DNA from: a virus
Taxonomy: Duplodnaviria > Heunggongvirae > Uroviricota > Caudoviricetes
Virus record (IMG/VR): IMGVR_UViG_2537561934_000016
Length of the DNA: 15,809 nucleotides
Direction: 5' to 3' (one strand)
Translations under genes and position numbers: made by a program
Shown: positions 1 to 15,433 of the stretch, piece after piece
Layout: each line of letters starts with the position of its first letter
Numbering within the stretch: the first letter of the stretch is position 1
Notes under the pieces: model-generated
Database searches by the model: none
What the model was told of the DNA's origin: nothing
What the model saw: only the letters and a program-made list of their open reading frames with translations

Positions 1-474
1 ATGTACAGTCCGGTACAAATAGCCAATAAATTCATAACGTTGGGAAACCAACATCATAATCCTCTGACCCACATGCAACTGCAGAAGCTTACTTATATTG
101 CCCATGGTTACTATTTAGCATTAACAGGTAAGCCTTTGCTCAATGAATGTGTCTCCGCGTGGAAGTACGGTCCAGTTATTCCTGGAATGTACGATGCTTT
201 CAAAGACTATGGGAATAAACCTGTTACGAATGTAGCAGTAGCTCCTTTTGGTGGCATCGTTACTATGGATCCGCAAGCAGAGAGCATTATCGGGGCTGTT
301 TATAAGTTTTACGGCTCGAAAAATGGAATTGAGTTATCAACTCTAACTCATATGCCAGGTACGCCTTGGTCACAAGCTTATAATGGTATTGGCTCGTCGA
401 TCATCTCAAATGATGCGATCAAGGCTTATTATCATGATTTATTGAATAACCGACAGCAATGTCAGGGCCTCTGA
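1..474 (+). CDS. Panacea-domain (DUF4065; SocA/GepA-like) protein, putative antitoxin, 157 aa
   Basis: ATG at base 1, so the true start could lie upstream of the window. Translation has the DUF4065-like core LQKLTYIAHGYYLAL ... SAWKYGPVIPGMYDAFKDYG, recognised from memory of the family. A 22-nt gap separates it from the next same-strand ORF. Confidence 0.65.
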   Translation: MYSPVQIANKFITLGNQHHNPLTHMQLQKLTYIAHGYYLALTGKPLLNECVSAWKYGPVIPGMYDAFKDYGNKPVTNVAVAPFGGIVTMDPQAESIIGAVYKFYGSKNGIELSTLTHMPGTPWSQAYNGIGSSIISNDAIKAYYHDLLNNRQQCQGL

Positions 475-496
475 AAAAGTAATATTCAGGGATGAC

Positions 497-1045
497 ATGT
501 CTCATAATTCAGATATCTATAAACTGATCGGAGCGGCCGCAGGTGTTGAAAATGGTCGCTCTGAAGCATCCTTAAACTCTACTGACAGTCAAGAGCAGGC
601 TTTTGAATCCGCATTTGAGCCGTCTAATCATGAACGCGATGATGATTCTTCTTCAGAAAATAAGGCTATTCTGGAGGAAGAAGAGTTTGGTTCTAATACT
701 GGTGCATTGCATGAGTTTATGCAGCAGAACAGAATGGACAGTCTTCAAGCTCAGCTTGATATGCTCAAATCACAAGTACGGGATAAGATAGCTGACGCAA
801 CTGGTAAAGAAATAGACAATGAGCTCCGGACAAAAATGGCATCATTCACGGTTTGGTTTATGTCGTGTTGGTGCTTATTCGTTGTCGCAATGTTTACATC
901 GTTTCTTATTGCACATGAAGGAAAGGCTCCAGTTGAAGCGATCGTTGCATTACTAGGTACAAGTACAATTAGTATTGTTGGTTTGGTTGGTTTCGTTGTT
1001 AGTGGATTGTTCAAATCAAGAAAAGATAGTGATAAAGAAAAATAA
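497..1045 (+). CDS. Hypothetical membrane protein, 182 aa; candidate toxin partner of the Panacea protein
   Basis: ATG start with AGGGA 5 nt upstream. Acidic, Ser-rich N-terminus (DDDSSSENKAILEEEEF), a central charged helical segment, and two C-terminal hydrophobic helices (FTVWFMSCWCLFVVAMFTSFLIA and IVALLGTSTISIVGLVGFVVSGLF). No family recognised. Confidence 0.6.
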   Translation: MSHNSDIYKLIGAAAGVENGRSEASLNSTDSQEQAFESAFEPSNHERDDDSSSENKAILEEEEFGSNTGALHEFMQQNRMDSLQAQLDMLKSQVRDKIADATGKEIDNELRTKMASFTVWFMSCWCLFVVAMFTSFLIAHEGKAPVEAIVALLGTSTISIVGLVGFVVSGLFKSRKDSDKEK

Positions 1046-1084
1046 CCCGTACATATACGGGTTATCCATAGTTTTAGTTTAGTT
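1031..1084. terminator. Bidirectional intrinsic terminator between convergent genes
   Basis: Perfect 8-bp stem AACCCGTA/TACGGGTT (1044-1051 and 1056-1063) with a 4-nt loop, T-rich on the plus side (GTTTTAGTTTAGTT) and T-rich on the minus side (reverse complement of GATAAAGAAAAAT). Confidence 0.5.
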
Positions 1085-1348
1085 ATATTTTTTTTCCGTT
1101 CTGACTTTTTCCCACTCAGCTCGCCCTTCTTCCCGTCTTTTGTCAATATATTCCGCAAGATCCTGAATGTTGATGCAGCGTTTTGCTTTTTGTGATGTAC
1201 CGATGCGATATGTAGGTACAGGCAACTTACAAGCGTTTGCTTTTGCTTCTGCTGTGGCTGGACTCATACCAAAGTATTTTTGACTAACTGCTGAGAGTTC
1301 AATGTTTGGGGTATTGAATTCAGCCATCAGTAAAAACAAGGTATTCAT
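1079..1348 (-). CDS. PrtN-family (pyocin-activator-like) small DNA-binding regulator, 89 aa
   Basis: Translation MNTLFLLMAEF ... IQDLAEYIDKRREEG matches the remembered PrtN-family pattern (MNTLFLLMA ... DLAAYID). ATG confirmed as cat at 1346-1348, with GGAG 8 nt upstream on the minus strand. Confidence 0.75.
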   Translation of the reverse strand: MNTLFLLMAEFNTPNIELSAVSQKYFGMSPATAEAKANACKLPVPTYRIGTSQKAKRCINIQDLAEYIDKRREEGRAEWEKVRTEKKYN

Positions 1349-1384
1349 ATCATTTCTCCATCATAACCGGCTGCACCCGGTGAG

Positions 1385-2200
1385 TTACTTATTCATTTCA
1401 ATAATATTATTTTCTATCATTGATTTATTTAAAACCAAAGAAGGAGCAAGATGGTTGTCTATTTTAAACAATGCATAACTTTTAAACTGTTGGTGATATC
1501 CGTAACTAATAAGGATGCTAGAAAAATCTCTTAATTCATCTTCTTTTAAAAAATTAAAATGAAATGGGTTGTCACCATTTATGAACAATGAAACATCTAT
1601 TATGCAGTATTTCTCTCTGTTGTCATTTGCATAGAAAAAAATATAAGACATTCTGTTTGTTAAGACAATGCCATTAAATTTTCTTATGTCTGTAGCTATT
1701 TTGTTTTCCATGTTTGGTGCCACATATTTATTTTCAGAAATACATTTAATTTCATCTCCAGATGTCGTGATTATATAAAAATGAAACTTATCATAAATAT
1801 CTAACTTAACTACGCCATCATTATTATAAAGGCTGCTAAATTTTGGTGGTTCAACTTTTAAAGAATCATAGTTCTTTAAAAGAAGAGGGGAGTCAAATTT
1901 AATAACTTGTAGTATCCCTTTACCTTCAACCTCCATATTGATTGAAGATATAGCAATTGCATTATCTCTTTTATTATTCAGGATTATGGTTGATATATGC
2001 ATGTCATATATTCTACTTGCATTTGCTGAATACGACACTGTCACCTTTTTTGATATTTTTTGCACGCCAAAATATATAGTGAAGGCAGCGGCAAGAATAG
2101 ATAAGAATTTAATGTCAAATAAGGACCATAGCCACATTAGTTGCTCAATTGCTTCAGAGTTAATCATTTGCTTTACCATTATCGCTGTAATACAACACAT
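1385..2200 (-). CDS. Hypothetical protein with N-terminal transmembrane anchor, about 271 aa, AT-rich; start uncertain
   Basis: The 6-frame ORF 1385..2221 opens on TTG. In-frame ATGs lie at 2200, 2179 and 2167 and none has a strong Shine-Dalgarno. A hydrophobic helix (LMWLWSLFDIKFLSILAAAFTIYFGV) follows. No family recognised. Sits between the YfdQ-like and PrtN genes on the same strand. Confidence 0.5.
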   Translation of the reverse strand: MCCITAIMVKQMINSEAIEQLMWLWSLFDIKFLSILAAAFTIYFGVQKISKKVTVSYSANASRIYDMHISTIILNNKRDNAIAISSINMEVEGKGILQVIKFDSPLLLKNYDSLKVEPPKFSSLYNNDGVVKLDIYDKFHFYIITTSGDEIKCISENKYVAPNMENKIATDIRKFNGIVLTNRMSYIFFYANDNREKYCIIDVSLFINGDNPFHFNFLKEDELRDFSSILISYGYHQQFKSYALFKIDNHLAPSLVLNKSMIENNIIEMNK

Positions 2201-2321
2201 GTGTATATATACGCAATGCAATTATTTTGCAAGTGCTTCATTTACTATCAATAGCTTCGTCACGTTATTGTTTAATGGTTCTTTATAGGGGCGGCAATAG
2301 TTAAAATTATCGCTTCCGTAA

Positions 2322-2345
2322 ACGCCCCCGCAGGGGCATTTGCAG
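2322..2345 (-). terminator. Weak candidate intrinsic terminator after the YfdQ-like gene
   Basis: On the minus strand, GCCCC-TGCG-GGGGC hairpin followed by GTTTAC. Short stem and poor U-tract, so low confidence. Confidence 0.25.
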
Positions 2346-2353
2346 TAATGAAA

Positions 2354-3178
2354 TCAGGCGGTGAAAGTACCAATAAAGGTTTCTACTTTGCTGTCTTTGA
2401 ATTTCTCAACAAGCAGATCACGAAATTCGTTAGCCATTTCTTCCTGTACCGCTTCCAGCTGAATAATGCGCAGAACCAGTACAGGACGATCGCCAGTGAT
2501 AATGCTGAGGCGTAATTTAAACGGACGTTCTTTCAGACCTTCAAACGGAACGCATTTAAATTCAAATGCCACTGGCATAATGTCTTTGGTCTTCGCTTCG
2601 ACAGACTCCATCAGGGAGCGTTTGCCGCTGAAGTCATTATCTTCAAAATCAGCGGTCTGGTTCGCTTCAATTGTGATTTTACGGATCGCCGCAGCCGCTT
2701 TGGTTGCCTGAATGGCGTCACCATTAGCATCAAAGCCCACAAGGTAGTCGGCCCAGTCTTCAATCCATTCTGCCAGTGACTTCTGGGAGTTACGCTCGCC
2801 GTTAACAGACAACAGAGCAGAGAACGGTGCTGTCTTTTTCAGTTTGAGAGTGGCGGTGTTATCTGCGTGACCTGGTTCATCAATAGTACCCAGGTTAAGC
2901 ACACTGACGGCACGCATATTATCGGCATCGATAAAGCAGCGGGTGCCTTCATCTGCAAGAACTTTAGAATAACGGGTAAAGTCATCGATGCTGGCAGTGG
3001 AAAGCGCACCACGGAAACGGAAGCGATTTAAATTAAATTTTTCCAGATCATGAATGCGGAAATTCTCAGGCAATGCCACAGCATCGGCACCAATCTTACT
3101 GATAATTTCATTAACACCCTGAGCAGAAATAAGGGCATGGATTTGATTAATTGCGGTTGCGTCTAAGTTCTGAGACAT
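2354..3178 (-). CDS. yfdQ: YfdQ-like prophage protein (DUF2303 family), 274 aa
   Basis: ATG (cat 3176-3178) with GAGGA 7 nt upstream. The 274-aa length and position directly downstream of a 120-aa gene match the yfdP-yfdQ pair of E. coli cryptic prophages as I remember it. The symbol rests on recalled length and synteny, not alignment. Confidence 0.7.
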
Positions 3179-3243
3179 AATAAGTCCTCACTATATAAAA
3201 ATATTCAGTGATGAGATAAATAATCAGTTTATTAAGAACGATA

Positions 3244-3606
3244 TTAACGACCTGCTGCGCGGAGTTTTCCGTCAGGTTCACCGGCAAGAGTCAGTAATTG
3301 TCCCTGGTCCTCCTGCAGAATAGTCAGGCGACCACCGCGATTGACATACATCGGCGTTTCGGTGGTGTCTTCTTCGGAAATTTTCCCGCGGTTAGTCGGG
3401 CGAACATATGAGAGTTTGTGTTTGATTTTCACACGGTTCTCATCAAATGGTTCGATTTCCAGGTTGAGTGAGACCTTACCTTTGGTTTTCGTGTTCATCA
3501 CACCGGAAGCGACTTCACTGAGAACTGCGCCGATTTTGGTTTCAAATACGCCGCCGTCCAGCTCCCCGATAAATGCCTGCACATCAGTACTGCGTTCGCT
3601 AGCCAT
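3244..3606 (-). CDS. yfdP: YfdP-like prophage protein, 120 aa
   Basis: The 6-frame ORF runs to 3837, but its N-terminal 77 residues are Cys/Arg-rich and not protein-like. The ATG at 3604-3606 has a strong GAGGAG 7 nt upstream and gives MASERSTDVQAFIGELDGG..., 120 aa. Symbol assigned from remembered length and adjacency to the YfdQ-like gene. Confidence 0.6.
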   Translation of the reverse strand: MASERSTDVQAFIGELDGGVFETKIGAVLSEVASGVMNTKTKGKVSLNLEIEPFDENRVKIKHKLSYVRPTNRGKISEEDTTETPMYVNRGGRLTILQEDQGQLLTLAGEPDGKLRAAGR

Positions 3607-3654
3607 TTTGCTGCTCCTCATCATATCGACCCTGCAAGGTCGGTTGGTTTCTCC

Positions 3655-3743
3655 ACAAAACAGAGAAGAACACCTGCGGTGGCAGCCGCCCGGATGGATT
3701 GGGTTATGAGCCCGTCGTCCGGTGATGCTCTTCTCTGTTTTGT
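3655..3743. repeat. Long inverted repeat (about 17 of 18 bp) flanking a roughly 53-nt GC-rich spacer
   Basis: ACAAAACAGAGAAGAACA (3655-3672) against TGCTCTTCTCTGTTTTGT (3726-3743); 15 contiguous bp are perfectly complementary. Confidence 0.45.
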
Positions 3744-3789
3744 AAAAAGAGCGGTACCAGCCGGAAGCAAGTGTACAAACTGGTACCGC
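3744..3789 (-). terminator. Candidate intrinsic terminator (minus strand)
   Basis: Perfect 10-bp inverted repeat GCGGTACCAG (3751-3760) / CTGGTACCGC (3780-3789) with a 19-nt loop. On the minus strand the hairpin is followed by TCTTTTTAC. Confidence 0.3.
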
Positions 3790-4238
3790 CAAAGCAGTGG
3801 CTGTTGTGGTGGGGTTGTCACTCAGGCGTATGGTCAACCTGACAATCCGGTGTCCTCAACGGGGAAAGAGTAACCCCGCCATACTTACCGCCGCGCCATT
3901 TCGCGGATTACCACAACGCTGAGAGCACTTAGCCAGTTACGGCACCACACTTTGTCGCGGTTCCATAAATGCCCTCATCGTTGCACCCTGGTCTCTTCCC
4001 AGGCGTCAAACCGGATCGCCACGCTGGTTAGGCGTCTTATCAGCATCATCATTGACTTGCACATTCCGGCTACCTGGTTTGTTTGCCCGAGCAAGGAGTG
4101 GATTGTCCCCTTTAACGTCCCCAGACCGCTAACGACGCATGTGCCATACGCCGTGTTACAACCAAATTTAGTTTAATCTTGCCTGTGTTATGTATCCTAT
4201 AGATACATTATGTATCTTAAGGGTACATTGTCAAGTAT

Positions 4239-4260
4239 AAAAAAACCTGCCGAAGCAGGT
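4239..4260 (-). terminator. Intrinsic terminator downstream of the cI-like repressor gene
   Basis: Minus-strand sequence AACCTGC-TTCG-GCAGGTT followed by TTTTTTT (plus-strand A run 4239-4245, stem 4245-4260). Lies 13 nt past the repressor stop. Confidence 0.5.
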
Positions 4261-4272
4261 TATAAATATTGA

Positions 4273-4947
4273 TTAGGCCTTTATTTTGTATCTTCTTGGT
4301 TTTCCTGAGAAAATCACTGTACCAATTATAGAGCAATTACCGTTGATCTTAATGTAAGGTTCAGGCCAGTTTGGGTTTAATGCTTTGAGGTAACGCTGTG
4401 TTCCATCTTCTATCAACCGCTTGAAGGTGGTTTCGCCTGTATCGTGCATCAATGCAATAACGTCGTCACCGTGGCAGGCAGGGACTTCAGGATCAACAAA
4501 AATCATGTCTCCCGGGCGGTACTCATCAATCATTGAATCACCAATCACCCGCAAGATATAAGTCATTTCGCCACAGGGTACAGGGCAGGGATAAGTTTCT
4601 GCTGTGCTCAAATCAACCTCAGAATAGCCAACTTCTTTCCATGCTCCGGCCTGTACCCATGATATGACAGGGACTAACGTTATTTGTTTGTTAGTGATTG
4701 AAACGTCAGGTTTTTTTGTGATGTTCGTTGTCTGGTGTTCTTGATCAAGCCATCCGACAGGCAGGTCGAAACATTTTTCGATGTGCCGTGCCATGCTGTC
4801 ACCGATATTTTTAGTTGCACCATCTCCCATAAACCTGCTGGTCTGGGTTGGCTCGCGATCAATCATGGTGGCAAAGGAAGAATTCCCGCCAACACCATCT
4901 CTCAGTTTTCTGGCGTTAGACCGCCGGATGTCATGGACTGTTTTCAT
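4273..4947 (-). CDS. cI: Phage CI-type repressor, N-terminal DNA-binding domain plus C-terminal S24 (LexA-like) autopeptidase domain, 224 aa
   Basis: C-terminal domain carries the S24 catalytic motifs: Ser in ILRVIGDSMIDEY and Lys in TTFKRL. The N-terminal region ends in the DLPVGWLD pattern typical of phage repressor DNA-binding domains. Divergent from a cro-like gene. Confidence 0.85.
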   Translation of the reverse strand: MKTVHDIRRSNARKLRDGVGGNSSFATMIDREPTQTSRFMGDGATKNIGDSMARHIEKCFDLPVGWLDQEHQTTNITKKPDVSITNKQITLVPVISWVQAGAWKEVGYSEVDLSTAETYPCPVPCGEMTYILRVIGDSMIDEYRPGDMIFVDPEVPACHGDDVIALMHDTGETTFKRLIEDGTQRYLKALNPNWPEPYIKINGNCSIIGTVIFSGKPRRYKIKA

Positions 4948-4963
4948 AAAGAAATTAAAACCT

Positions 4964-4982
4964 TTGTACCGATAAGGTACAA
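4964..4982. promoter_or_regulatory. Candidate operator in the cI-cro intergenic region
   Basis: 19-bp palindrome TTGTACC-GATAA-GGTACAA with perfect 7-bp arms, 17 bp upstream of the cI start and about 55 bp upstream of cro. A further GGTACA half-site lies near 5026-5031. Confidence 0.4.
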
Positions 4983-5037
4983 GTATCTTGAAGGTTCATC
5001 TCAATCATGTAATATGTATACCGGAGGTACATATTGT

Positions 5038-5247
5038 ATGAAAGCGTATTGGGACTCTTTAACCAAAGAACAGCAGGGTGAGTTGGCCGGAAAAGTTGGC
5101 TCAACACCAGGCTACTTACGGCTGGTTTTCAATGGTTATAAAAAAGCCAGTTTTGTGCTGGCTAAAAAACTTGAGCAATGCACGTCAGGTGCAATTACGA
5201 AATCTGACTTAAGACCGGATATCCGGAAGACTGGGATGTCCTGCTGA
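5038..5247 (+). CDS. cro: Cro/YdaS-like HTH regulator, 69 aa
   Basis: ATG at 5038 with GGAGG 10 nt upstream. Translation MKAYWDSLTKEQQGELAGKVGSTPGYLRLVFNGYKK ... GAITKSDLRPDI resembles prophage Cro/YdaS proteins, which end in a DLRPDIF-type motif. The track's upstream extension to 4735 is antisense to cI and rejected. Confidence 0.7.
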   Translation: MKAYWDSLTKEQQGELAGKVGSTPGYLRLVFNGYKKASFVLAKKLEQCTSGAITKSDLRPDIRKTGMSC

Positions 5248-5933
5248 CGGATGTTTTTCATAAAAGCTGGCCGCTGGCCTCCGATCCTTCTCAACAAATG
5301 CGACTGATGGCAATGGCGGTGGACTCCGGCGGTGAAGACGGGGTCACTGATAATGCCTATAAATTCTGGCGTCGTTGCCGTCGTGATGGCCTTGGTAAAC
5401 GTATTTACCTGTTTAAGGGCGACAGCATCCGGCGCGCAAAACTGATCACCCGTACATTCCCTGATAACACCGGACGAACGGGCCGACGGGCGCAGGCCGC
5501 AGGTGATGTACCGCTCTGGCTTCTTCAGACGGATGCCCTGAAAGACCGGGTGAATAACGCGTTATGGCGTGACTCGCCAGGTCCCGGCTATGTGCATTTC
5601 CCTGACTGGCTGGGGAGCTGGTTTTACGACGAACTGACGTATGAAGAGCGGAGCAGTGACGGGAAATGGAGTAAGCCGGGTCGCGGTGCCAACGAAGCTT
5701 TTGACCTGATGGTGTATGCCGAGGCTCTGGTCATTCTGCATGGATACGAAAAGATCCGCTGGCCGGATGCACCGGAGTGGGCGAGCCGGGAAACCTGGCT
5801 GGAGTGTGTCCCGGACAGTACCGAACCGTCACCCACACCGGAACCGGTATCCACGCCTGTTAAAAAACAAAAACGGAAGAAAACAGTAACTGACGATGTT
5901 AACCCCTGGCTGACTTCCGGAGGATGGTTATGA
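5208..5933 (+). pseudogene. 3' fragment of lambda-type terminase large subunit (gpA-like C-terminal region), no start codon
   Basis: Reading frame opens straight after a TGA at 5205-5207 with no plausible start. Its stop overlaps the next start in an ATGA arrangement, as at the lambda A-W junction. Followed by gpW-like and portal genes. The ATPase N-terminal part and the small subunit are absent. Confidence 0.65.
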
Positions 5934-6142
5934 ATCAGAATGATATTGAAGCCATGATTCAGCGTTATACGGAAGCTGAAATGGCGGTGCTGGACGGAAA
6001 ATCCGTCACTTTTAATGGTCAGCAGATGACCATGGAAAACTTATCTGAGATCCGGCAGGGGCGGCAGGAGTGGGAGCGCCGCCTTGCGGCTCTGATTACA
6101 CGACGACGGGGGCATCCCGGGTACCGGCTGGCGAGGTTCTGA
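5930..6142 (+). CDS. gpW-like head-tail joining protein, 70 aa
   Basis: ATG at 5930 with GGAGG 7 nt upstream. C-terminus RRRGHPGYRLARF resembles the lambda gpW C-terminus (RRRGPAGFYV, recalled). Lies between terminase and portal as in lambda. Confidence 0.65.
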   Translation: MNQNDIEAMIQRYTEAEMAVLDGKSVTFNGQQMTMENLSEIRQGRQEWERRLAALITRRRGHPGYRLARF

Positions 6143-7494
6143 TGGCAATTCTTGATGATGTGATTGGCGTTTTTTCACCAGGATGGAAAGCGGCAAGGCT
6201 GCGTTCCCGAGCGGTGATCCAGGCTTATGAGGCCGTAAAAACGACGCGGACACACAAAGCCCGACGGGAGAACCGAACTGCCGACCAGTTAAGCCAGTAC
6301 GGGGCCGTGTCGTTACGTGAGCAGGCCCGTTACCTTGATAACAACCACGATCTGGTCATTGGTGTATTTGACAAGCTGGAAGAACGGGTGGTGGGGAAAA
6401 ACGGGATTATTGTCGAGCCACATCCGGTATTACGCAATGGGGCCATTGCCCGTGACCTGGCAGCGGAGATACGCACCCGATGGAGTGAATGGTCTGTCAG
6501 TCCGGAAGTCACCGGGCAGTTTACCCGCCCGATGCTGGAACGTCTGATGCTGCGTACCTGGCTGCGCGATGGTGAGGTGTTTGCCCAGATGGTTTCCGGG
6601 CGCATAAACAGCCTGACGCCTTCTGCCGGTGTTCATTTCTGGCTGGAGGCGCTCGAGCCGGACTTTATTCCCATGACCAGTGATGAGAGCAACAGGCTGA
6701 ATCAGGGCGTGTTTGTTGATGACTGGGGGCGTCCCGAAAAATATCTGGTGTATAAAAGCCGTCCTGTATCCGGACGGCAGATGGAAACCAAAGAAGTGGA
6801 TGCAGAGCGAATGCTGCATCTTAAATTTGTTCGCCGTCTGCACCAGATGCGCGGGACGTCTTTATTGTCCGGTGTACTGATCCGCCTCAGTGCCCTGAAA
6901 GAGTATGAAGATTCTGAGCTGACTGCAGCAAGGATCGCCGCTGCTCTGGGGATGTACATCCGGAAAGGCGACGGACAGAGCTATGAACCGGATGGTAATG
7001 GCAGCAAGGAGAATGAACGCGAGCTTACCATTCAGCCAGGCATTATTTACGACGATCTGAAACCCGGCGAAGAAATCGGAATGGTGAAGTCGGATCGCCC
7101 CAATCCTAATCTTGAAACTTTTCGTAATGGTCAGTTGCGTGCAGTGGCGGCTGGTAGTCGTCTGAGTTTTTCCAGTACAGCGCGCAACTATAACGGCACT
7201 TACAGCGCCCAGCGTCAGGAGCTGGTTGAGTCTACTGATGGCTACCTGATCCTGCAGGACTGGTTTATTGGTGCCGTCACCCGCCCGATGTATCGTGCAT
7301 GGCTGAAACAGGCTGTGGCATCCGGTGTTATCAGGTTACCCCGCGATCTTGACCGTTCTTCACTGTATACCGCGGTGTATTCCGGACCAGTGATGCCGTG
7401 GATTGACCCTGTTAAGGAGGCTGAGGCCTGGAAAATCCAGATTCGTGGTGGAGCGGCGACAGAATCAGACTGGGTATCCGGCAGGAAACACTGA
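6142..7494 (+). CDS. Phage portal protein (lambda gpB position), 450 aa, possibly C-terminally truncated
   Basis: ATG at 6142 overlaps the gpW stop (TGATG). Called by synteny (terminase, W, portal) and size; the sequence is not obviously close to lambda gpB from memory. The track start at 6070 is an upstream extension and rejected. Confidence 0.6.
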   Translation: MAILDDVIGVFSPGWKAARLRSRAVIQAYEAVKTTRTHKARRENRTADQLSQYGAVSLREQARYLDNNHDLVIGVFDKLEERVVGKNGIIVEPHPVLRNGAIARDLAAEIRTRWSEWSVSPEVTGQFTRPMLERLMLRTWLRDGEVFAQMVSGRINSLTPSAGVHFWLEALEPDFIPMTSDESNRLNQGVFVDDWGRPEKYLVYKSRPVSGRQMETKEVDAERMLHLKFVRRLHQMRGTSLLSGVLIRLSALKEYEDSELTAARIAAALGMYIRKGDGQSYEPDGNGSKENERELTIQPGIIYDDLKPGEEIGMVKSDRPNPNLETFRNGQLRAVAAGSRLSFSSTARNYNGTYSAQRQELVESTDGYLILQDWFIGAVTRPMYRAWLKQAVASGVIRLPRDLDRSSLYTAVYSGPVMPWIDPVKEAEAWKIQIRGGAATESDWVSGRKH

Positions 7495-7498
7495 ATGA

Positions 7499-10342
7499 AT
7501 GCACCCGTGCGGAGCAGTCGGCCAGCGTGGTGCTCTGGGAACCCATGCGACTGATGCTGCAGGCTCAGCACGTGCAGCCAGCACATCAGCCGGGCAGGCC
7601 GCGACGTCGGCTCAGTCAGCGTCTTCCAGCGCAGGAACGGCATCAACAAAGGCTACTGAAGCATCAAAAAGTGCTGCCGCTGCAGAGTCCTCAAAAAGCG
7701 CGGCGGCTACCAGTGCCGGTGCGGCGAAAACGTCAGAAACGAATGCTGCAGCGTCACAAAAATCTGCAGCCACTTCTGCATCCACCGCGACCACGAAAGC
7801 GTCAGAAGCTGCCACCTCAGCCCGGGATGCGGCGGCCTCAAAAGAGGCAGCGAAATCATCAGAAACGAGCGCAGCCTCGAGCGCCAGTAGTGCAGCCTCT
7901 TCGGCAACGGCGGCAGGAAATTCCGCGAAGGCCGCAAAAACGTCTGAGACGAATGCGGATAACAGCGCACAGGCGGCAGCGGCCTCACAAACTGCATCGG
8001 CAAACTCCGCGACAGCAGCCAAAAAATCAGAAACCAACGCGAAAAATAGCGAGGCAGCAGCAAAGAGCAGCGAAACTAATGCTAAATCCAGTGAAACAAA
8101 CGCGGCGAAATCTGCAGCGGACGCACTTAATTATCGCAACCAGGCACAATCCGTTGTTGGTAACAATATTGGTCTTGGTGAAGTTGCTATGACCTGCACT
8201 GATATCTCTGTTGAGCCATCAGGTTATATTGGATTTATCAGGATTTACATCTCAGCGAAAGGTTATCCATCAGTAGCGTCTAGTGCCGGGGATAATCTTA
8301 TTTCTGGTTATATAGTTAGATCAGAAGTGTCAACAAAAAGATATTCCGGTCTATTTGTTGGTTCAGATACAAAATCATTGTATTCGTACATTTACAGCCA
8401 AAGTTCTGGCCCGCAATGGATACGTCATACCCGCAGAGATGAATTAAGCCGCTTTGGTCAAAATGAATCAACAACTCGTATGTATGGTCCAACTGGTGAT
8501 CGTTTCTTTGAAATCCATACTAACGGGAGTTGGGGGGTTTATGATTCTTCTTCTGGACAATGGTCTCCGTTAGGTTTAGCCCAGGGTGGTACTGGTGGAA
8601 GAACTATCGAGCAAGCACGTGCGAACTTGCGGGTAATGTATGAGCAAAAAGCTGGCCTTGCTAATACTGACCTAAACACCCTTACCGGTGAATATTCTGG
8701 TTTCTATCAACAACCAACGAGCGCTTACGCAACAGAAGAATTAAATTACCCAATCGGTCTGGCGGGCGCTTTAATAGTGCTCCAAACGAGAGCCAACACT
8801 GCTTCTTCCTGCGTTCAGGTGTACCACCCTTATAATAATCCGGGAATTACTTATAGACGAATATATGAAGGAGGTAGCGGTACCTGGTCTGAATGGAAGA
8901 GAGATGTATCAACAGAAAGGGTTGAAGAGGGAAAAGAAACAACTTACGTATATTCTACGTATTCTTCAGGCGCACCACGCTTACAGGTTTCCAAATCTGG
9001 TTTGTGGGGTTGTCATAATGGCACTGGCTGGTTGCCATTAGCTGTTGGGCAAGGAGGTACAGGTGCGACAACAGTAGAAGATGCGCGAAACAACTTAAGT
9101 CTTGGCGAAAGTAGCGCAGTTAAATTTAAAAACCTTACTTTAACCGAAGCGCTCGACACGACATTAGGACTGCTTACAAAAACAGGACGAGACTGGAACG
9201 CTCAGCATACTGATAACGTCGACAAATTTAGACCAATTGCAGGCAGTACAAACGGCCCGGCAGGCTCTATGGTTCTTGGCGGCATTCATGTTCAATTTAG
9301 TAAAAATTATGCTGTGCAGTTCGGAGGCCGCAATTCCGGTTTTTGGGGAAGAACAATTGAAAATGGAACGACGCAGGAATGGAAGAAATTACTAACAGTA
9401 GACGATCTCAATTCATCTACCGCTCTTGCTGTCAGGTCATTAACCACATCTAACCCGATAAAATCTGGCGGAGGGCGGATTGATGTCCTTGGAAGCACGT
9501 CAGACTATAGCAAAATGGATTGCTTTGTACGTGGGTTTGATAGCACCGGTAATTCTCTCGCGTGGGCGTTGGGTTCATCAGTCGGCGTAAGTAAGATGCT
9601 GTCGCTAAAAAATTTCTTTAGCGGAGCTGAGATACTGCTAAATGGTAATGACGGCGCGGTTCAACTCAAAACAGGTGCTGTTAACGGTGCTAAAGCGCAG
9701 GCGCTCACTATCAACAAGGATGAGGTTAACTCAACTGTTGATTTAACTCTTACAAAACAAACAGGGACTGGCAATCGTTTTGTTTTACAGAACTTAGGTA
9801 ATACAGAACTACCATTTGCTGTCAAGGTGTGGGGTTCAGGTGATCGACAAAACGTTTTTGAGGTTGGAACGTCTGCCGCGTATCTGTTTTATGCTCAAAA
9901 AACATCGTCAGGTCAGCTGTTTGATGTAAACGGTGCTATTAACTGTACAACACTGAATCAGTTATCAGACCGCGAGCTGAAAGACAATATTCAGATTATC
10001 AGTGACGCAACCGAAGCTATCCGTAAAATGAACGGGTACACCTACACACTTAAGGAAAACGGACTGCCTTACGCTGGTGTTATTGCACAGGAAGCAATGG
10101 AGGCAATACCGGAAGCGGTAGGCTCATTCACTCATTACGGTAAAGAGTTGCAGGGACCAACGGTTGACGGCAATGAATTACGTGAAGAAACACGTTATCT
10201 GAATGTTGACTACGCCGCCGTGACGGGCTTACTTGTTCAGGTCGCCCGTGAAACAGATGATCGCGTTACCGCGCTGGAAGAAGAAAACGCAGAATTAAAA
10301 CAAAGATTATCTGCAATTGAGGCGGCGCTTGCCTCTAAATAA
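7499..10342 (+). CDS. stf: Side tail fibre (Stf-like) protein, N-terminally truncated, with C-terminal S74 intramolecular-chaperone domain, 947 aa
   Basis: Residues from about 15 onward (ATDAAGSARAASTSAGQAATSAQ ... AAATSAGAAKTSETNAAASQKSAATSAS) match an internal region of lambda Stf as I recall it. The C-terminal part begins with the S74 autoproteolysis signature SDRELKDNIQ (Ser codon at 9965-9967) and ends in a coiled coil. The frame opens 1 nt after a TGA. Confidence 0.8.
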   Translation: MHPCGAVGQRGALGTHATDAAGSARAASTSAGQAATSAQSASSSAGTASTKATEASKSAAAAESSKSAAATSAGAAKTSETNAAASQKSAATSASTATTKASEAATSARDAAASKEAAKSSETSAASSASSAASSATAAGNSAKAAKTSETNADNSAQAAAASQTASANSATAAKKSETNAKNSEAAAKSSETNAKSSETNAAKSAADALNYRNQAQSVVGNNIGLGEVAMTCTDISVEPSGYIGFIRIYISAKGYPSVASSAGDNLISGYIVRSEVSTKRYSGLFVGSDTKSLYSYIYSQSSGPQWIRHTRRDELSRFGQNESTTRMYGPTGDRFFEIHTNGSWGVYDSSSGQWSPLGLAQGGTGGRTIEQARANLRVMYEQKAGLANTDLNTLTGEYSGFYQQPTSAYATEELNYPIGLAGALIVLQTRANTASSCVQVYHPYNNPGITYRRIYEGGSGTWSEWKRDVSTERVEEGKETTYVYSTYSSGAPRLQVSKSGLWGCHNGTGWLPLAVGQGGTGATTVEDARNNLSLGESSAVKFKNLTLTEALDTTLGLLTKTGRDWNAQHTDNVDKFRPIAGSTNGPAGSMVLGGIHVQFSKNYAVQFGGRNSGFWGRTIENGTTQEWKKLLTVDDLNSSTALAVRSLTTSNPIKSGGGRIDVLGSTSDYSKMDCFVRGFDSTGNSLAWALGSSVGVSKMLSLKNFFSGAEILLNGNDGAVQLKTGAVNGAKAQALTINKDEVNSTVDLTLTKQTGTGNRFVLQNLGNTELPFAVKVWGSGDRQNVFEVGTSAAYLFYAQKTSSGQLFDVNGAINCTTLNQLSDRELKDNIQIISDATEAIRKMNGYTYTLKENGLPYAGVIAQEAMEAIPEAVGSFTHYGKELQGPTVDGNELREETRYLNVDYAAVTGLLVQVARETDDRVTALEEENAELKQRLSAIEAALASK
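7540..8110 (+). repeat. Ala/Ser/Thr-rich degenerate tandem repeats inside the tail-fibre gene
   Basis: Repeated units of the form AAKTSETNA / AAKSSETNAKSSETNAAKSA. The GC-rich low-complexity DNA gives spurious long ORFs in other frames. Confidence 0.5.
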
Positions 10343-10850: not shown

Positions 10851-12149
10851 CTATTTCACTATTGCTAAGTTTTTTTCCTTCTCTTTACCTATCCACATAG
10901 AAACAAGTTCTCGTTTCTGAGATATATGTAGATTGTCAAAGTTAGGTATGTATTTAAAAGTCTCCGCTCTACCTCTGCGGAGTTCATAGAAAGTTTTAAT
11001 CAAAGATTTTGGTTTTATTTCTGATGAAAGGCCGAATCGGCGGATAAGATTATTGATAGTATGATTAACAGAGCGAAGTTGAGCTGTTGAGGTTATTTGT
11101 GAGAAGTACGATACCCATCCCAATCGTTTACCTTCAAACACACATCCCGTAATTCTGAGATTTAGTTTCCACTGACAATATGCAACAGCTCGTTCTTTAT
11201 CACGCTTACTTTTAGCTTGTAGTAGAGCGTGCCTATATGCAGTAAAAATTTTTGCTAAGGATGACTCAAATCTAAGAATGCTCTCATGTTTTATCAATAA
11301 TTCTCGATTTTCTATGTGGTATCCCAAAAAGTTAAAACTTTCATCCAAACTGCCTACTTTGGATTTTGAGTTCTCTTCATTTAATGGATGTGGGTTTAAA
11401 TTTAATGATTGAAGCTTATCAATGATATGAGAAGCTATTTTTGTTGCTTGATATTTTGGTGTTAAAATAAGAATGTCATCAACGTATCGCATGTACCATA
11501 TGTCATGCATTTTATTGATTTCATCATCGAAATTAGATAGTGATATTTCAGCTAAAATGTTTGATATCGCTAATCCCTGAGGTACTCCTCTGGTATTATT
11601 AGGGATACCTTTGCTTCCTGTGGTTCCACTTACAGTAGGCACGATTAATGATGATGTTATTAACTGTCTAATTTCTTTTTTTCTAATTTTATTTTTTATT
11701 GCATTAATTATCAATTTATGTTCAATTGAAGGATAGAAACTTTTAAGATCTATTTTTGCATATTCAGCATATAGACTGTTGTTTAATGCTTCTTTCAATG
11801 AGTCAATTACTGTATGTGGTAGTTTTAATCTGGACTTAGGATATATTTCCGTAAGGCATTCACAGAGAGCTCTAAGAGTAATTCTGTCCCTAGCAGTTGG
11901 TATGGAAATCTGTCTGGGTGTAGAGTTAGCGCCTTTAGATATTAATTTTTCTTTATATGCTGTAAATTTGTAATTGCCAGAATTAACCTTTTCAAAAATG
12001 AAAGTGATCTCATTTTTTATTGTCAAATCAAGTTTTGATGGGCGAATCCGATCTATGCCAATCGCTCCTGATTCTTTGATTTTTTCAGAGTATACTTTTA
12101 GAAGATTTTTTTTCGAGAATGACTTTTTAAAAATTCTGCTTGCAGTCAT
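10851..12149 (-). CDS. Reverse transcriptase (defence-associated Abi/UG/retron-like RT), about 432 aa
   Basis: RT motifs are readable in the translation: IPTARDRITLRAL, GVPQGLAISNILAEISLSNFDDEI, catalytic YMRYVDDILIL (YVDD) and FNFLGYHI, followed by a roughly 130-aa C-terminal extension. The track start at 12155 is TTG; the first ATG is at 12149. The start overlaps the 3' end of the upstream membrane-protein gene by 23 nt. Strongly AT-rich. Confidence 0.85.
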   Translation of the reverse strand: MTASRIFKKSFSKKNLLKVYSEKIKESGAIGIDRIRPSKLDLTIKNEITFIFEKVNSGNYKFTAYKEKLISKGANSTPRQISIPTARDRITLRALCECLTEIYPKSRLKLPHTVIDSLKEALNNSLYAEYAKIDLKSFYPSIEHKLIINAIKNKIRKKEIRQLITSSLIVPTVSGTTGSKGIPNNTRGVPQGLAISNILAEISLSNFDDEINKMHDIWYMRYVDDILILTPKYQATKIASHIIDKLQSLNLNPHPLNEENSKSKVGSLDESFNFLGYHIENRELLIKHESILRFESSLAKIFTAYRHALLQAKSKRDKERAVAYCQWKLNLRITGCVFEGKRLGWVSYFSQITSTAQLRSVNHTINNLIRRFGLSSEIKPKSLIKTFYELRRGRAETFKYIPNFDNLHISQKRELVSMWIGKEKEKNLAIVK

Positions 12150-12678
12150 AGTCAATCCAAAGATATATTAATGGGAGTATATAAAGTGCGGCAGTAATAA
12201 ATATTCGAAGTAATATCCATAAAATAACAATTATTTTTTCTTTTTGTGTGGGGATCCTCGTCTTAAGTCCAACTTGAGTTACCCTTGAAATTTTATCATC
12301 TATGTCACGGTGATTCTCAACCTCATTGAGCAAATTAAAATATTTTTCTTTCTGTTCAAGAGATAACTGTTGACTGGTGGTAATGTCAAAATAGAGTCGC
12401 TGTAGTGCAATATAATTCCTTCTCATGGCTATTGCTCGACCACGAAAATCTAGGTTAGATACGATCAGAGAAATACCCAGTAGAGCCACTGAAAGTATCG
12501 CCGCAACGACATCTGTATTATCTCCTAGAACCTTTGGAAATCGCAACGTTACAATTGAAAGTACCGCACTCAATATAGCATACCAAACGAGGATAAATTG
12601 AGAGTGTTTTTCAAGCCATTCTAGTCGATGGTGCGCTTGGATACGTGCTTTATATGTAAACCAAATATTGTCATGCAT
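12127..12678 (-). CDS. Multi-pass membrane protein (SLATT-like topology by inference), 183 aa, co-operonic with the RT
   Basis: ATG (cat 12676-12678) with AAGGA 6 nt upstream. Hydrophobic helices ILVWYAILSAVLSIVTLRF, VVAAILSVALLGISLIVSN and IIVILWILLRIFITAALYILPLIYLWI. The 3' end overlaps the RT start. Confidence 0.7.
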   Translation of the reverse strand: MHDNIWFTYKARIQAHHRLEWLEKHSQFILVWYAILSAVLSIVTLRFPKVLGDNTDVVAAILSVALLGISLIVSNLDFRGRAIAMRRNYIALQRLYFDITTSQQLSLEQKEKYFNLLNEVENHRDIDDKISRVTQVGLKTRIPTQKEKIIVILWILLRIFITAALYILPLIYLWIDYDCKQNF

Positions 12679-13161: not shown

Positions 13162-13181
13162 CACTGTATTTGTATACAGTA
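13162..13181. promoter_or_regulatory. LexA (SOS) box 1
   Basis: CACTGTATTTGTATACAGTA fits the CTGT-N8-ACAG consensus (TACTGTATATATATACAGTA) with an AT-rich core, 13-32 nt upstream of the dinI-like start. Confidence 0.6.
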
Positions 13182-13209: not shown

Positions 13210-14307
13210 TCAAGAGGTCTTATTTCTGCTCCTTTGGAGTTCTTCAAAACGATTATGTAAAGATTTCGGATACAGTTCGGTATATACCTGCCATAGCACG
13301 TTTAATGAACGATGCCCTGTAACCTGAGCGACTTCCTCAATACTAAAACCAGCCTCAAATAAGCGACTTGCCCCTTCTCTACGCAAATCATGGTATCTCA
13401 GATCTTTAATACCTAATTTGCTTCTTACCCTCTGAAATCCTGCGGTAACAGAAGTGCTGTTATATGGAAAAATGAATTCTGATTTTTTGGGTTGTCGCTG
13501 GACGATATCCCAGGCTTCCCCAAGCAAGGCAACTTTCATATGGTTGCCTTCCTTTTTACGTGGATCTTTCCTGTCTCTTACTAGTATAGATTTTTGTTCC
13601 TGGTCGAGATCTTCCCATCGTAACCGGCATACTTCTCCGATTCGCATACAGGACCACACAGAAAATTTGAGGATATCAACGAACGGAATTTTTGAGCATT
13701 TATGAGTAGATCGTTGTTGAAGGCCTTCAATGAGCATGTTCAGTTCATCAGATGCTGGTCTACGATTACGACGGTTTGATTTACCAATCAAACCGAGTTT
13801 AAGTAGATATGGACGAGCGCTTTTCGCCGGGTTTGATGTGTAATTGATTCCGTATACAGGTTTTGCCGCATCCAGAACACTGCCAAGATAACTAACATCG
13901 TGGCTGACTGTTGCTGGGCCTGCACCAGCGTTGTTTCTTAGCCTGCAATGTTCAATTACGTCATTTTCTGTCAGTTCAGATAGTTTGATCGCGGAGATGT
14001 CACTATCCATAAGCAGTTCCAGCACATATCTTTTAGTACGGCCTGCTTTACCTCCGGCATTTGGGTCATTTAAATATTTGTGTAGTAAGTCACGGACTGT
14101 AAGTCCGTCAACAGCATTTGATGATGGAATGCCATATAGATCTAATTCCATCACTTTCTGTGCGCCCCATGTTTTGGCATGAGCATGTTTAGGGAATGTT
14201 TTGCTTTCCCTGTAAGTGATAACACCTTTTTCTTTGATAATCACATTACAGCGATAGCGTGGTGTGCCATCGGATTTTAGTCGTTTCTCTATGTTATAGT
14301 ACGCCAT
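13210..14307 (-). CDS. int: Tyrosine recombinase / phage integrase (dusA-associated type by context), 365 aa
   Basis: Integrase-sized protein whose C-terminal region HDLRREGASRLFEAGFSIEEVAQVTGHRSLNVLWQVYTELY carries the His/Arg/Tyr pattern of tyrosine recombinases. Encoded divergently from dusA, 88 bp from its start. Confidence 0.9.
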   Translation of the reverse strand: MAYYNIEKRLKSDGTPRYRCNVIIKEKGVITYRESKTFPKHAHAKTWGAQKVMELDLYGIPSSNAVDGLTVRDLLHKYLNDPNAGGKAGRTKRYVLELLMDSDISAIKLSELTENDVIEHCRLRNNAGAGPATVSHDVSYLGSVLDAAKPVYGINYTSNPAKSARPYLLKLGLIGKSNRRNRRPASDELNMLIEGLQQRSTHKCSKIPFVDILKFSVWSCMRIGEVCRLRWEDLDQEQKSILVRDRKDPRKKEGNHMKVALLGEAWDIVQRQPKKSEFIFPYNSTSVTAGFQRVRSKLGIKDLRYHDLRREGASRLFEAGFSIEEVAQVTGHRSLNVLWQVYTELYPKSLHNRFEELQRSRNKTS

Positions 14308-14362: not shown

Positions 14363-14395
14363 TAACGCGAGAAAAATAGCCTGAAATGTTCAAAA

Positions 14396-15433
14396 ATGCA
14401 CGATAATCCTGAAACACAGAAAACTAATCAAACCAGCGTGATGCCTGAAAAAACTGGCGCTTACTGGAGTTCTCGGTTTAGCATTGCTCCTATGCTCGAC
14501 TGGACGGACAGACATTGCCGCTATTTCTTGCGTCTGCTTTCCCGCAATACGTTGCTGTATACCGAAATGGTGACCACAGGGGCGATTATTCACGGTAAAG
14601 GTGATTACCTGGCGTACAGTGAAGAAGAACATCCGGTAGCGTTGCAACTCGGCGGTAGCGATCCGGCGGCGCTGGCACAGTGTGCGAAGCTGGCAGAAGC
14701 GCGTGGATATGATGAGATCAACCTGAATGTCGGCTGCCCGTCTGACCGGGTGCAGAACGGCATGTTTGGTGCGTGTCTGATGGGTAATGCGCAGCTGGTT
14801 GCCGACTGCGTGAAAGCGATGCGCGATGTGGTGTCGATTCCAGTGACGGTGAAAACGCGTATTGGCATCGATGACCAGGACAGCTATGAATTTCTCTGCG
14901 ATTTCATCAACACCGTTTCCGGCAAAGGCGAGTGTGAGATGTTTATCATCCACGCACGTAAAGCCTGGCTTTCGGGGTTAAGCCCGAAAGAAAACCGTGA
15001 AATCCCGCCGCTCGATTATCCGCGTGTGTATCAACTGAAGCGTGACTTTCCGCATCTGACAATGTCGATTAACGGTGGTATCAAGTCGCTGGAAGAGGCC
15101 AAAGCACACCTGCAACATATGGATGGCGTGATGGTCGGGCGCGAGGCGTATCAGAATCCGGGTATTCTGGCGGCGGTAGACCGGGAGATCTTTGGTTCCT
15201 CGGATACCGATGCCGATCCAGTGGCGGTAGTGCGCGCCATGTATCCGTACATTGAGCGTGAACTCAGCCAGGGGACGTATCTCGGCCATATTACCCGGCA
15301 TATGTTGGGCTTGTTCCAGGGTATTCCTGGCGCGCGGCAGTGGCGGCGTTATTTAAGTGAAAATGCCCATAAAGCGGGTGCAGACATTAATGTGCTGGAA
15401 CACGCGCTCAAACTGGTGGCGGATAAGCGTTAA
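14396..15433 (+). CDS. dusA: tRNA-dihydrouridine(20/20a) synthase DusA, 345 aa
   Basis: Translation carries the Dus family core ([19 protein letters not shown] ... [13 protein letters not shown] ... catalytic region) and ends ... LKLVADKR, as in E. coli DusA. An alternative in-frame start is at 14441 (MPEKTG). The 5' end may be element-supplied. Confidence 0.9.

Follow-up and report, generated by a model that had tools for sequence, protein, structure and literature searches.

A horizontally mobile single-gene cassette upstream of a probable RdfN-type excisionase gene in a dusA-integrated Escherichia coli prophage

The DNA analyzed here is IMG/VR virus record IMGVR_UViG_2537561934_000016, a stretch of 15,809 nucleotides that we call the window. 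It is a decayed lambdoid Escherichia coli prophage integrated in dusA. On its minus strand, behind the backbone genes yfdP and yfdQ, lies a strongly AT-rich gene, here named X, and behind X lies a small gene of the PrtN family. The locus raises the question of what X is, how it came to stand at this place, and what the PrtN-family gene does. We found that X is a self-contained, horizontally mobile, single-gene cargo cassette, which now stands immediately upstream of the PrtN-family gene, and the latter is probably rdfN, the excisionase gene of the prophage. The possible function of X is considered after these two points.

Gene X as a mobile cassette

The features that define X and its cassette are as follows.

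1385-2167, minus strand: gene X, 260 aa, stop codon at 1385-1387 (open reading frame list, homologue alignment and RefSeq coding sequence of 783 bp).
2168-2221, minus strand: in-frame 5' extension of the mechanical open reading frame (TTG 2221, ATG 2200, ATG 2179), most likely an untranslated leader.
1381-2304, minus strand: swapped-in cassette of 924 bp, consisting of X and 137 bp of AT-rich upstream DNA (blastn homology breakpoints).

The AT-rich open reading frame of 1385-2221 (minus strand), from which the original prediction started, is real: it is present in the list of open reading frames, and its GC content is low throughout. In 300-bp sliding windows, the GC fraction was 0.26-0.32 over the X stretch and 0.43-0.50 over yfdQ. 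The coding sequence of X has a GC content of 28.7%, compared to 45-50% for the neighbouring genes, and the claim that X is much more AT-rich than the yfdP/yfdQ side was thus right.

The length of the protein, on the other hand, had to be corrected. The candidate starts TTG 2221, ATG 2200, ATG 2179 and ATG 2167 all share one frame, and a length of 278 aa had been counted from TTG 2221. A word-indexed protein search reached 11-13 homologue clusters (250-313 aa, identity 40-99%; n = 11). Nine of the 11 clusters start at, or at most one residue from, the Met of the aligned motif MINxxxIEQL, and the residues encoded by 2168-2221 have no counterpart in these nine. One of the remaining two is shorter at the N-terminus, and the other has an unrelated 45-residue extension. 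A strong GGAGG lies just 5' of the aligned ATG in the Klebsiella homologue, and RefSeq consistently annotates X as 783 bp with its start at 2167. From the homologue starts, the Klebsiella GGAGG and the RefSeq annotation, we therefore assign the start of X to ATG 2167, which gives a protein of 260 aa and corrects the annotation; 2168-2221 is most likely non-coding.

All 11 homologue clusters are full length, down to 40% identity, and this rules out the reading of X as a degraded gene. Structure prediction gave no known housekeeping family either; that is, neither of the two outcomes that the original prediction had named as fatal to it was found. The dN/dS value of X against the 64%-identical Citrobacter gene was 0.05, with dS saturated. 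Judged from these comparisons, X is a real, conserved gene under purifying selection. Among the 92%-identical E. coli alleles of X (window 1385-2167 against L023 and L025), the dN/dS value was 0.42-0.48, far above the value with Citrobacter; this could reflect relaxed or diversifying selection, or merely the small number of substitutions.

When positions 1-5300 of the window were compared by blastn with related dusA prophages (L010, L011, L012 and L013), the homology stopped at 1380/1381 and resumed at 2304/2305. In STEC1575 and K-15KW01, the corresponding interval carries yfdR, several small genes, an ead/Ea22-like gene and a 3'-5' exonuclease gene. O157:H7 has a decayed version of this block, and CPS-53 of K-12 carries yfdR-yfdS-yfdT at the interval. 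The original idea that cargo has been replaced at the position of yfdR was therefore correct, and it can be sharpened: a block that measures about 3.56 kb in STEC1575 has given way to a cassette of 924 bp with clean breakpoints. YfdR, a 5'-deoxynucleotidase, occupies the same slot just downstream of yfdQ in K-12 CPS-53 and in most relatives, but YfdR and X are unrelated proteins, and the DNA homology ends 49 bp past the stop codon of yfdQ.

A minority of the E. coli prophages in dusA have the cassette in place of the yfdR-to-exonuclease block. Of 5426 complete E. coli genomes, 99 had X, in each case as a single copy and on the chromosome, and 741 had the PrtN-like backbone gene. Two further strains have X in the same slot despite different Panacea modules and different alleles of the PrtN-like gene. 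The 137-bp region upstream of X is partly conserved with the cassette of Citrobacter.

Relatives of X lie in the following surroundings.

Citrobacter islands, among them a satellite-like element that has AlpA, Ash and a D5-type primase: X followed by an excisionase and, after it, an integrase.
IMG/VR prophage: X followed by Exc (PF07825) and, after it, a lambda-type integrase.
Klebsiella prophages: X between an MT-A70 methylase and a nin-like region.
Pseudomonas P22-like prophage: X as a lone opposite-strand gene between lysis and head genes.
IMG/VR locus L034: X as a lone opposite-strand gene.
P2-like prophage: X between portal gpQ/ogr and gpA.
Conjugative element: X between type IV secretion system (T4SS) genes and the relaxase.
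Plasmid-like contig: X 17 bp after a pair of Eco57I-type methylase and XamI-type endonuclease, with Phd/ParE and IS66 nearby.
Chromosome: X directly after the type I restriction-modification (R-M) operon hsdM-hsdS-hsdR-ygjP.
Acinetobacter temperate phage: X beside the integrase and umuDC cargo.
11-kb Acinetobacter plasmid: X near mazEF.
Buttiauxella genome: X beside an HNH protein.

In the loci of E. coli, Citrobacter, Klebsiella and IMG/VR that were checked, the X genes have 29-33% GC within surroundings of 44-52% GC. No conserved partner gene was seen, the neighbours in the P2-like, conjugative, Citrobacter, Klebsiella and Acinetobacter loci being mutually unrelated, and we therefore think that X works alone or with host factors. 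One X-carrying Klebsiella prophage also has, among its head genes, an 86-aa gene (L002 14352-14612) with a match to PF24729, the Acb2/Tad1 hairpin family of anti-defence sponges.

One arrangement recurs among these loci. X homologues lie 24-36 bp upstream, on the same strand, of excisionase genes from three unrelated families in three backbones.

1348-1385 of the window: gap between X and the gene of PF11112/PHROG 1300.
8783-8818 of L006 and 6780-6805 of L030: the corresponding gaps, where the other families are PHROG 2917 and PF07825/PHROG 629.

This pattern may come from a site in front of xis that is permissive for recombination, or it may mean that X is functionally coupled to excision.

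In its deviant base composition, and in being shuffled among unrelated phage backbones as a single gene between backbone genes, X resembles the phage morons (PMC3594210). It also resembles the cargo of the gpA-gpQ hotspot of P2, which holds anti-phage systems (Rousset et al., PMC9122126), and one relative of X sits in that hotspot itself. Unlike a moron, X in the window replaces a multi-gene block and was not added between adjacent genes. Morons have their own promoter and terminator. The X cassette brings its 137 bp of upstream DNA, the frequency of promoter-like hexamers (2251-2224 and 2207-2178) is not above that in shuffled sequence, and no terminator follows X.

The PrtN-family gene downstream of X

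The gene behind X has the following position and assignment.

1079-1348, minus strand: gene of the PrtN family, probably an rdfN-type excisionase (recombination directionality factor, RDF), dusA-prophage backbone, 89 aa (PF11112, PHROG 1300).

The product of this gene matches PF11112 at 82.3 bits (2.8e-23), compared to a gathering cutoff of 24.2, and its membership of the PrtN family, as originally predicted, is thus borne out. It also matches PHROG 1300, labelled 'excisionase', at 7.5e-40. The gene had been described as a homologue of pyocin-type activators for which no target was obvious. This description is not supported, in view of the integration in dusA, the match to PHROG 1300, the literature on rdfN and the position at the end of the operon. 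A prtN homologue was reported in 60 of 94 dusA islands, with its role then unassigned (Farrugia et al., PMC4482086). The name rdfN was given by Durand et al., in whose study deletion of the gene abolished the excision of a dusA-specific element and complementation restored it (PMC8409611).

A comparison with CPS-53 of K-12 is also instructive. There the homologous yfdP-yfdQ operon ends with torI, which is att-proximal and far from intS. TorI is the known RDF of CPS-53. TorI and the PrtN-like protein have no sequence similarity, and the parallel between them is one of position alone.

The gene of the window shares with RdfN of the dusA elements (PMC8409611) the PF11112 domain, the small size, the integration of its carrier in dusA, and a place far from int and near the opposite att end. 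The two differ in length (89 aa here and 76 aa there) and in carrier, which is a lambdoid prophage here and an IncC-mobilised island there. They also differ in control: 1079-1348 ends a repressor-controlled early operon, whereas the RdfN of that study sits behind an AcaCD-responsive promoter.

Taking these comparisons together, 1079-1348 is best read as the RdfN-type excisionase gene of the prophage, whose product would work with the integrase encoded next to dusA. Since the element is integrated in dusA and PF11112 genes are rdfN in such elements, the likely target is the att sites of the prophage itself. The presence of the gene as an att-proximal, operon-end backbone gene in 741 genomes likewise suggests that an RDF role fits it better than that of a strict pyocin activator PrtN, which acts on pyocin genes by way of P-box repeats in front of them and is itself under repression by PrtR.

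It is very unlikely that the PrtN-like protein is a transcriptional activator like PrtN of P. aeruginosa, regulating X or another target: the match to PF11112 is genuine and PrtN is known to activate pyocin genes (cited in PMC4482086), but the gene is prophage backbone that is found with or without X, like torI in CPS-53 it is the last, att-proximal gene of its operon, the excision of dusA elements was shown to require their PF11112 genes (PMC8409611), the PHROG label is excisionase, and X lies upstream of the gene and not behind a promoter that the gene could activate.

The rdfN role of genes of this kind is already known and is not new here. The label 'pyocin activator PrtN family protein' on dusA prophages should accordingly read excisionase or RDF. 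The tie of rdfN to X is positional; that is, the two genes share an operon and are separated by a gap of 36 bp. The other features of this operon are listed below.

1040-1067, both strands: bidirectional terminator-like hairpin with a 12-bp stem on the minus strand and a 10-bp stem on the plus strand (terminator scan).
2354-3178, minus strand: yfdQ (DUF2303), backbone gene upstream of X (PF10065, 2.4e-92; RefSeq).
3244-3606, minus strand: yfdP, backbone, first annotated gene of the leftward operon (RefSeq; PHROG 204).
4207-4234, minus strand: best sigma-70-like promoter match of the region (TTGACA-16-CATAAT, 11/12), just downstream of the terminator-like hairpin of the repressor gene.

The terminator scan found no terminator-like site between X and rdfN. 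The hairpin at 1040-1067 forms the end of two units, the leftward operon behind rdfN and the Panacea pair, which runs rightward. From this layout, co-transcription of X with rdfN seems plausible. The site at 4207-4234 is a candidate pL-like promoter for yfdP-yfdQ-X-rdfN by its consensus match, the total of such sites being not above the shuffled expectation. The stretch between this candidate and yfdP (3607-4200) is without an annotated gene. The mechanical open reading frame that holds yfdP runs to TTG 3837 (3244-3837, minus strand, 197 aa), and RefSeq and the PHROG match favour the 120-aa form starting at 3606.

Possible action of X at the inner membrane

X matches PHROG 14996 (unnamed, function unknown) at 2.9e-176 over residues 1-260 of 260, and all of 24 diverse relatives match the same family. 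An exhaustive search of 1.84 billion representatives with a hidden Markov model gave 220 proteins at E <= 0.001, of which 140 were at E <= 1e-10; the family thus comprises at least 220 clusters at 50% identity. Most of these matches are 235-275 aa long and have the same layout as X.

Matches to named families or known structures were not obtained. X has no usable match in Pfam, NCBIfam or PADLOC-DB v2.0.0 (0 PADLOC families), its sole Pfam line being Ig_TMEM131L_3 at E = 0.013, under the cutoff of that family, and a Pfam scan found no family shared by the 24 relatives. A profile search of PDB sequences with the X family gave nothing below E = 0.88, a Foldseek search of the X model against BFVD nothing at E <= 0.001, and tblastn of X against 50,697 phage records no match at E <= 1e-5. 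In a phage genome search, a distant relative of X matched one hypothetical protein only, in an Acinetobacter phage, and a search of 185,579 species-representative genomes with the close alignment gave a single locus. For WP_000610754, which is X, no mention was found in the literature and none in the DefensePredictor supplements, a prior description being not fully excluded. The family is unnamed and without a literature trace that we could find.

The AlphaFold2 model of X (12-sequence alignment, pLDDT 83) starts with a long N-terminal helix (residues 4-39); a beta-sandwich follows (about 42-141) and, behind a disordered linker, an alpha/beta domain (156-260). The N-terminal hydrophobic segment occurs throughout the family, which together with the modelled helix upholds the membrane helix proposed originally. 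The C-terminal alpha/beta domain has no significant fold match in the PDB. In the 15-residue flanks of the helix, Lys and Arg number on average 2.5 after and 0.65 before it (137 members), and the C-terminal flank is the more positive one in 85% of the 137. By the positive-inside rule, a short outside N-terminus and a cytoplasmic body are therefore predicted. The prediction for X is thus a protein that crosses the inner membrane once, its short N-terminus lying in the periplasm and both the Ig-like sandwich and the small alpha/beta domain in the cytoplasm. The best-conserved residues across 130 members are K37, N65, D68, P94, K98, S111, C142, Y179 and N205. The strongest conservation lies in the Ig-like domain and not in the helix, save for K37 at the interface.

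We lean somewhat towards the view that X is defence or exclusion cargo. X would protect the cell that carries the element against other phages, and possibly against other incoming DNA elements, and its site of action would be the cytoplasmic face of the inner membrane. There it may bind the DNA-entry machinery and so block genome entry, which would be superinfection exclusion without a nuclease. A role in phage or incoming-DNA conflict is suggested because the neighbourhoods of X are of the defence-cargo type (hotspots, R-M systems, toxin-antitoxin (TA) systems, integrase-proximal slots, plasmids), and because the same prophage holds a defence pair of UG17 reverse transcriptase and SLATT as well as a Panacea TA pair. 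That X blocks genome entry specifically is a tentative proposal, and a rather doubtful one. We prefer it because the predicted architecture parallels that of SNIPE minus the nuclease, because the strongest conservation sits in the membrane-proximal Ig-like domain, and because members of the family are also found on conjugative DNA, a setting in which entry exclusion is common.

SNIPE, or PD-lambda-1, is a nuclease bound to the membrane, and it cuts phage DNA while this is being injected (PMC13190303). SNIPE and X are both single-gene systems found in E. coli accessory DNA. A short periplasmic N-terminus, one membrane helix and cytoplasmic domains tethered at the inner membrane have been shown for SNIPE and are predicted for X. 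The DUF4041 DNA-binding domain of SNIPE was not found by Pfam in X or in the 24 relatives, and X lacks the C-terminal GIY-YIG nuclease domain, for which it was also checked.

Imm of T4 and gp15 of HK97 are classical superinfection-exclusion proteins of the inner membrane. SieA of P22 belongs to the same class (PMC10883804). X would resemble these proteins as a small, phage-borne, non-enzymatic accessory product of the inner membrane that is proposed to stop genome entry. It differs from them in having one helix and about 220 cytoplasmic residues in two folded domains, and the tblastn search of the phage records showed no sequence relationship, neither to these proteins nor to others of the kind such as Sp and Cor.

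Several points weigh against a defence or exclusion role as described. The role is assigned by guilt by association from about 15 contexts and not by a statistical enrichment test. In three backbones X lies in an induction-expressed early operon just before xis, a position from which expression during lytic growth, and not in the lysogen, would follow. The promoter-like sites near X are not above chance, its own promoter is only putative, and AT-rich genes in E. coli are often silenced. The membrane helix (about residues 13-35) is single and moderately hydrophobic (mean Kyte-Doolittle value 1.7), and the topology is predicted from charge bias alone. No catalytic domain was detected in X, and the conserved residues N65, D68, K98, S111 and C142 may belong to an active site that has escaped recognition and not to a binding surface. 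The PADLOC models, none of which matched X, also gave nothing for the 24 relatives save one chance-level match (E = 0.0099).

The main rival is abortive infection by way of the membrane helix. The cytoplasmic domains would sense a phage product, and an oligomer formed through the helix would depolarise or permeabilise the inner membrane, so that the cell is killed or arrested. The mobile-element and R-M-adjacent contexts are the same for this explanation as for defence or exclusion cargo, and a single gene without a partner, encoding a membrane helix and a non-enzymatic cytoplasmic part, is in keeping with it. Many defence effectors are also membrane proteins, for example the SLATT partner in this prophage. 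X, however, has one moderately hydrophobic helix and no pore-forming or known effector domain, the effector and Abi models of PADLOC do not match it, and its most conserved residues lie, K37 excepted, outside the helix. We regard abortive infection as rather unlikely.

A second rival is that X serves the lytic programme of the phage and gives no protection to the lysogen. X would then be a delayed-early accessory made together with the excisionase, for host takeover, counter-defence or a block to re-infection. The position 24-36 bp before three unrelated excisionase families, on the same strand and in three backbones, argues for this. The place just before xis is that of the non-essential early 'ea' genes of lambda. 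Two further points in its favour are the lack of a terminator-like site between X and rdfN and the putative nature of X's own promoter. Because the X-then-excisionase layout is repeated, X may be expressed at induction rather than in the lysogen. Nevertheless, no phage lytic programme exists in several places where relatives of X lie: a plasmid-like contig and a chromosome, behind R-M operons in both cases, a conjugative element and an 11-kb plasmid. Others are lone genes opposite to phage late operons, and the prophage of the window, in which most of the terminase, portal and tail genes are gone, still keeps X intact. A service to the lytic programme is therefore unlikely as the explanation of X. 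Still more unlikely is a role in lysogenic conversion outside phage conflict, in which mobile elements would carry X for its use to the host, for instance as a factor for the envelope, stress or colonisation.

As an explanation of the locus as a whole, we put forward, with considerable reserve, that X is a membrane-acting anti-phage cargo, preferably one that blocks entry, and that its neighbour is the RdfN excisionase. A bolder version, which we consider improbable, is that PHROG 14996 is a new single-gene family of immunity against phages and incoming DNA, in which a membrane-tethered, non-enzymatic Ig-like module of the cytoplasm and a previously unseen alpha/beta domain intercept the genome-entry apparatus from within, at the inner membrane. 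In this version the placement before unrelated excisionase genes would be deliberate co-expression that closes the cell to competitors at induction. Prophages commonly carry single-gene cargo that is uncharacterised and has a defence-like neighbourhood. If the defence or exclusion role is true, the family adds a protein of this kind without a recognisable catalytic domain and with a C-terminal domain unmatched among solved structures, and it extends the idea, known from SNIPE, of immunity organised spatially at the entry site of the phage genome. X occurs in clinically important E. coli lineages, and a defence or exclusion protein there could affect the host range in phage therapy. As a small single gene (about 260 aa), X is quickly testable.

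The prophage around X

Positions 1-5300 of the window are 100% identical to several complete chromosomes. In the RefSeq annotation of one such chromosome, a gene for a Panacea-domain antitoxin and a gene for a 182-aa membrane protein lie on the plus strand. The PrtN-family gene, the 260-aa hypothetical protein gene (X), yfdQ, yfdP and a LexA/CI-like repressor gene lie on the minus strand. The rest consists of a cro-like gene, fragments of terminase, portal and tail genes, the pair of reverse transcriptase and SLATT genes, dinI, the integrase gene and dusA. The main features outside the operon are as follows.

4273-4947, minus strand: CI/LexA-like S24 repressor (PF00717, 1.5e-26; RefSeq).
13210-14307, minus strand: tyrosine integrase next to dusA, presumed partner of RdfN (open reading frame; RefSeq 'tyrosine-type recombinase/integrase' at the matching position of L001).
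14393-14499, plus strand: 5' end of dusA, attR side (blastn of L001 11301-12100 against the window).

The gene dusA starts at 14396. A 107-bp copy of its 5' part, 83% identical to 14393-14499, lies 0.3-0.4 kb to the left of window position 1, that is, on the attL side outside the window, and RefSeq annotates a partial dusA pseudogene at L001 11592-11696. Such a duplicated 5' segment of dusA is a hallmark of dusA-specific integration (Farrugia et al., PMC4482086).

The structural region (about 5220-10342, plus strand) is heavily deleted. According to RefSeq, a terminase fragment follows right after the cro-like gene, the portal gene is truncated, and a 72-bp fragment of tail gene L remains. The tail-fibre gene is truncated at the N-terminus and has an S74 peptidase/pyocin-knob domain. 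The prophage cannot be viable, yet its cargo genes are intact. In the chromosome NZ_CM151387.1, which is otherwise identical, ISKox3 (ISL3-like) has inserted between dinI and the integrase gene (L001 25177-26492); the window does not have this insertion at 13175/13176.

A defence-associated reverse transcriptase gene of class UG17 lies at 10851-12155 on the minus strand (PADLOC RT_UG17, 7.9e-151). It is overlapped by a SLATT membrane effector gene at 12127-12678 on the same strand (RTasSLATT, 1.5e-56), and the two form a known defence pair of the DRT type. At the other end, a Panacea/SocA-like antitoxin gene (1-474, plus strand; PF13274, 5.9e-18) is followed after 22 bp by the gene for the 182-aa protein (497-1045, plus strand), which has a C-terminal hydrophobic region and whose sole assignment is PHROG 13343. 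These two genes, which lie at the att-proximal end, look like those of a membrane toxin and its PanA-type antitoxin. In relatives, both the Panacea allele and its partner, there 128 aa long, are different.

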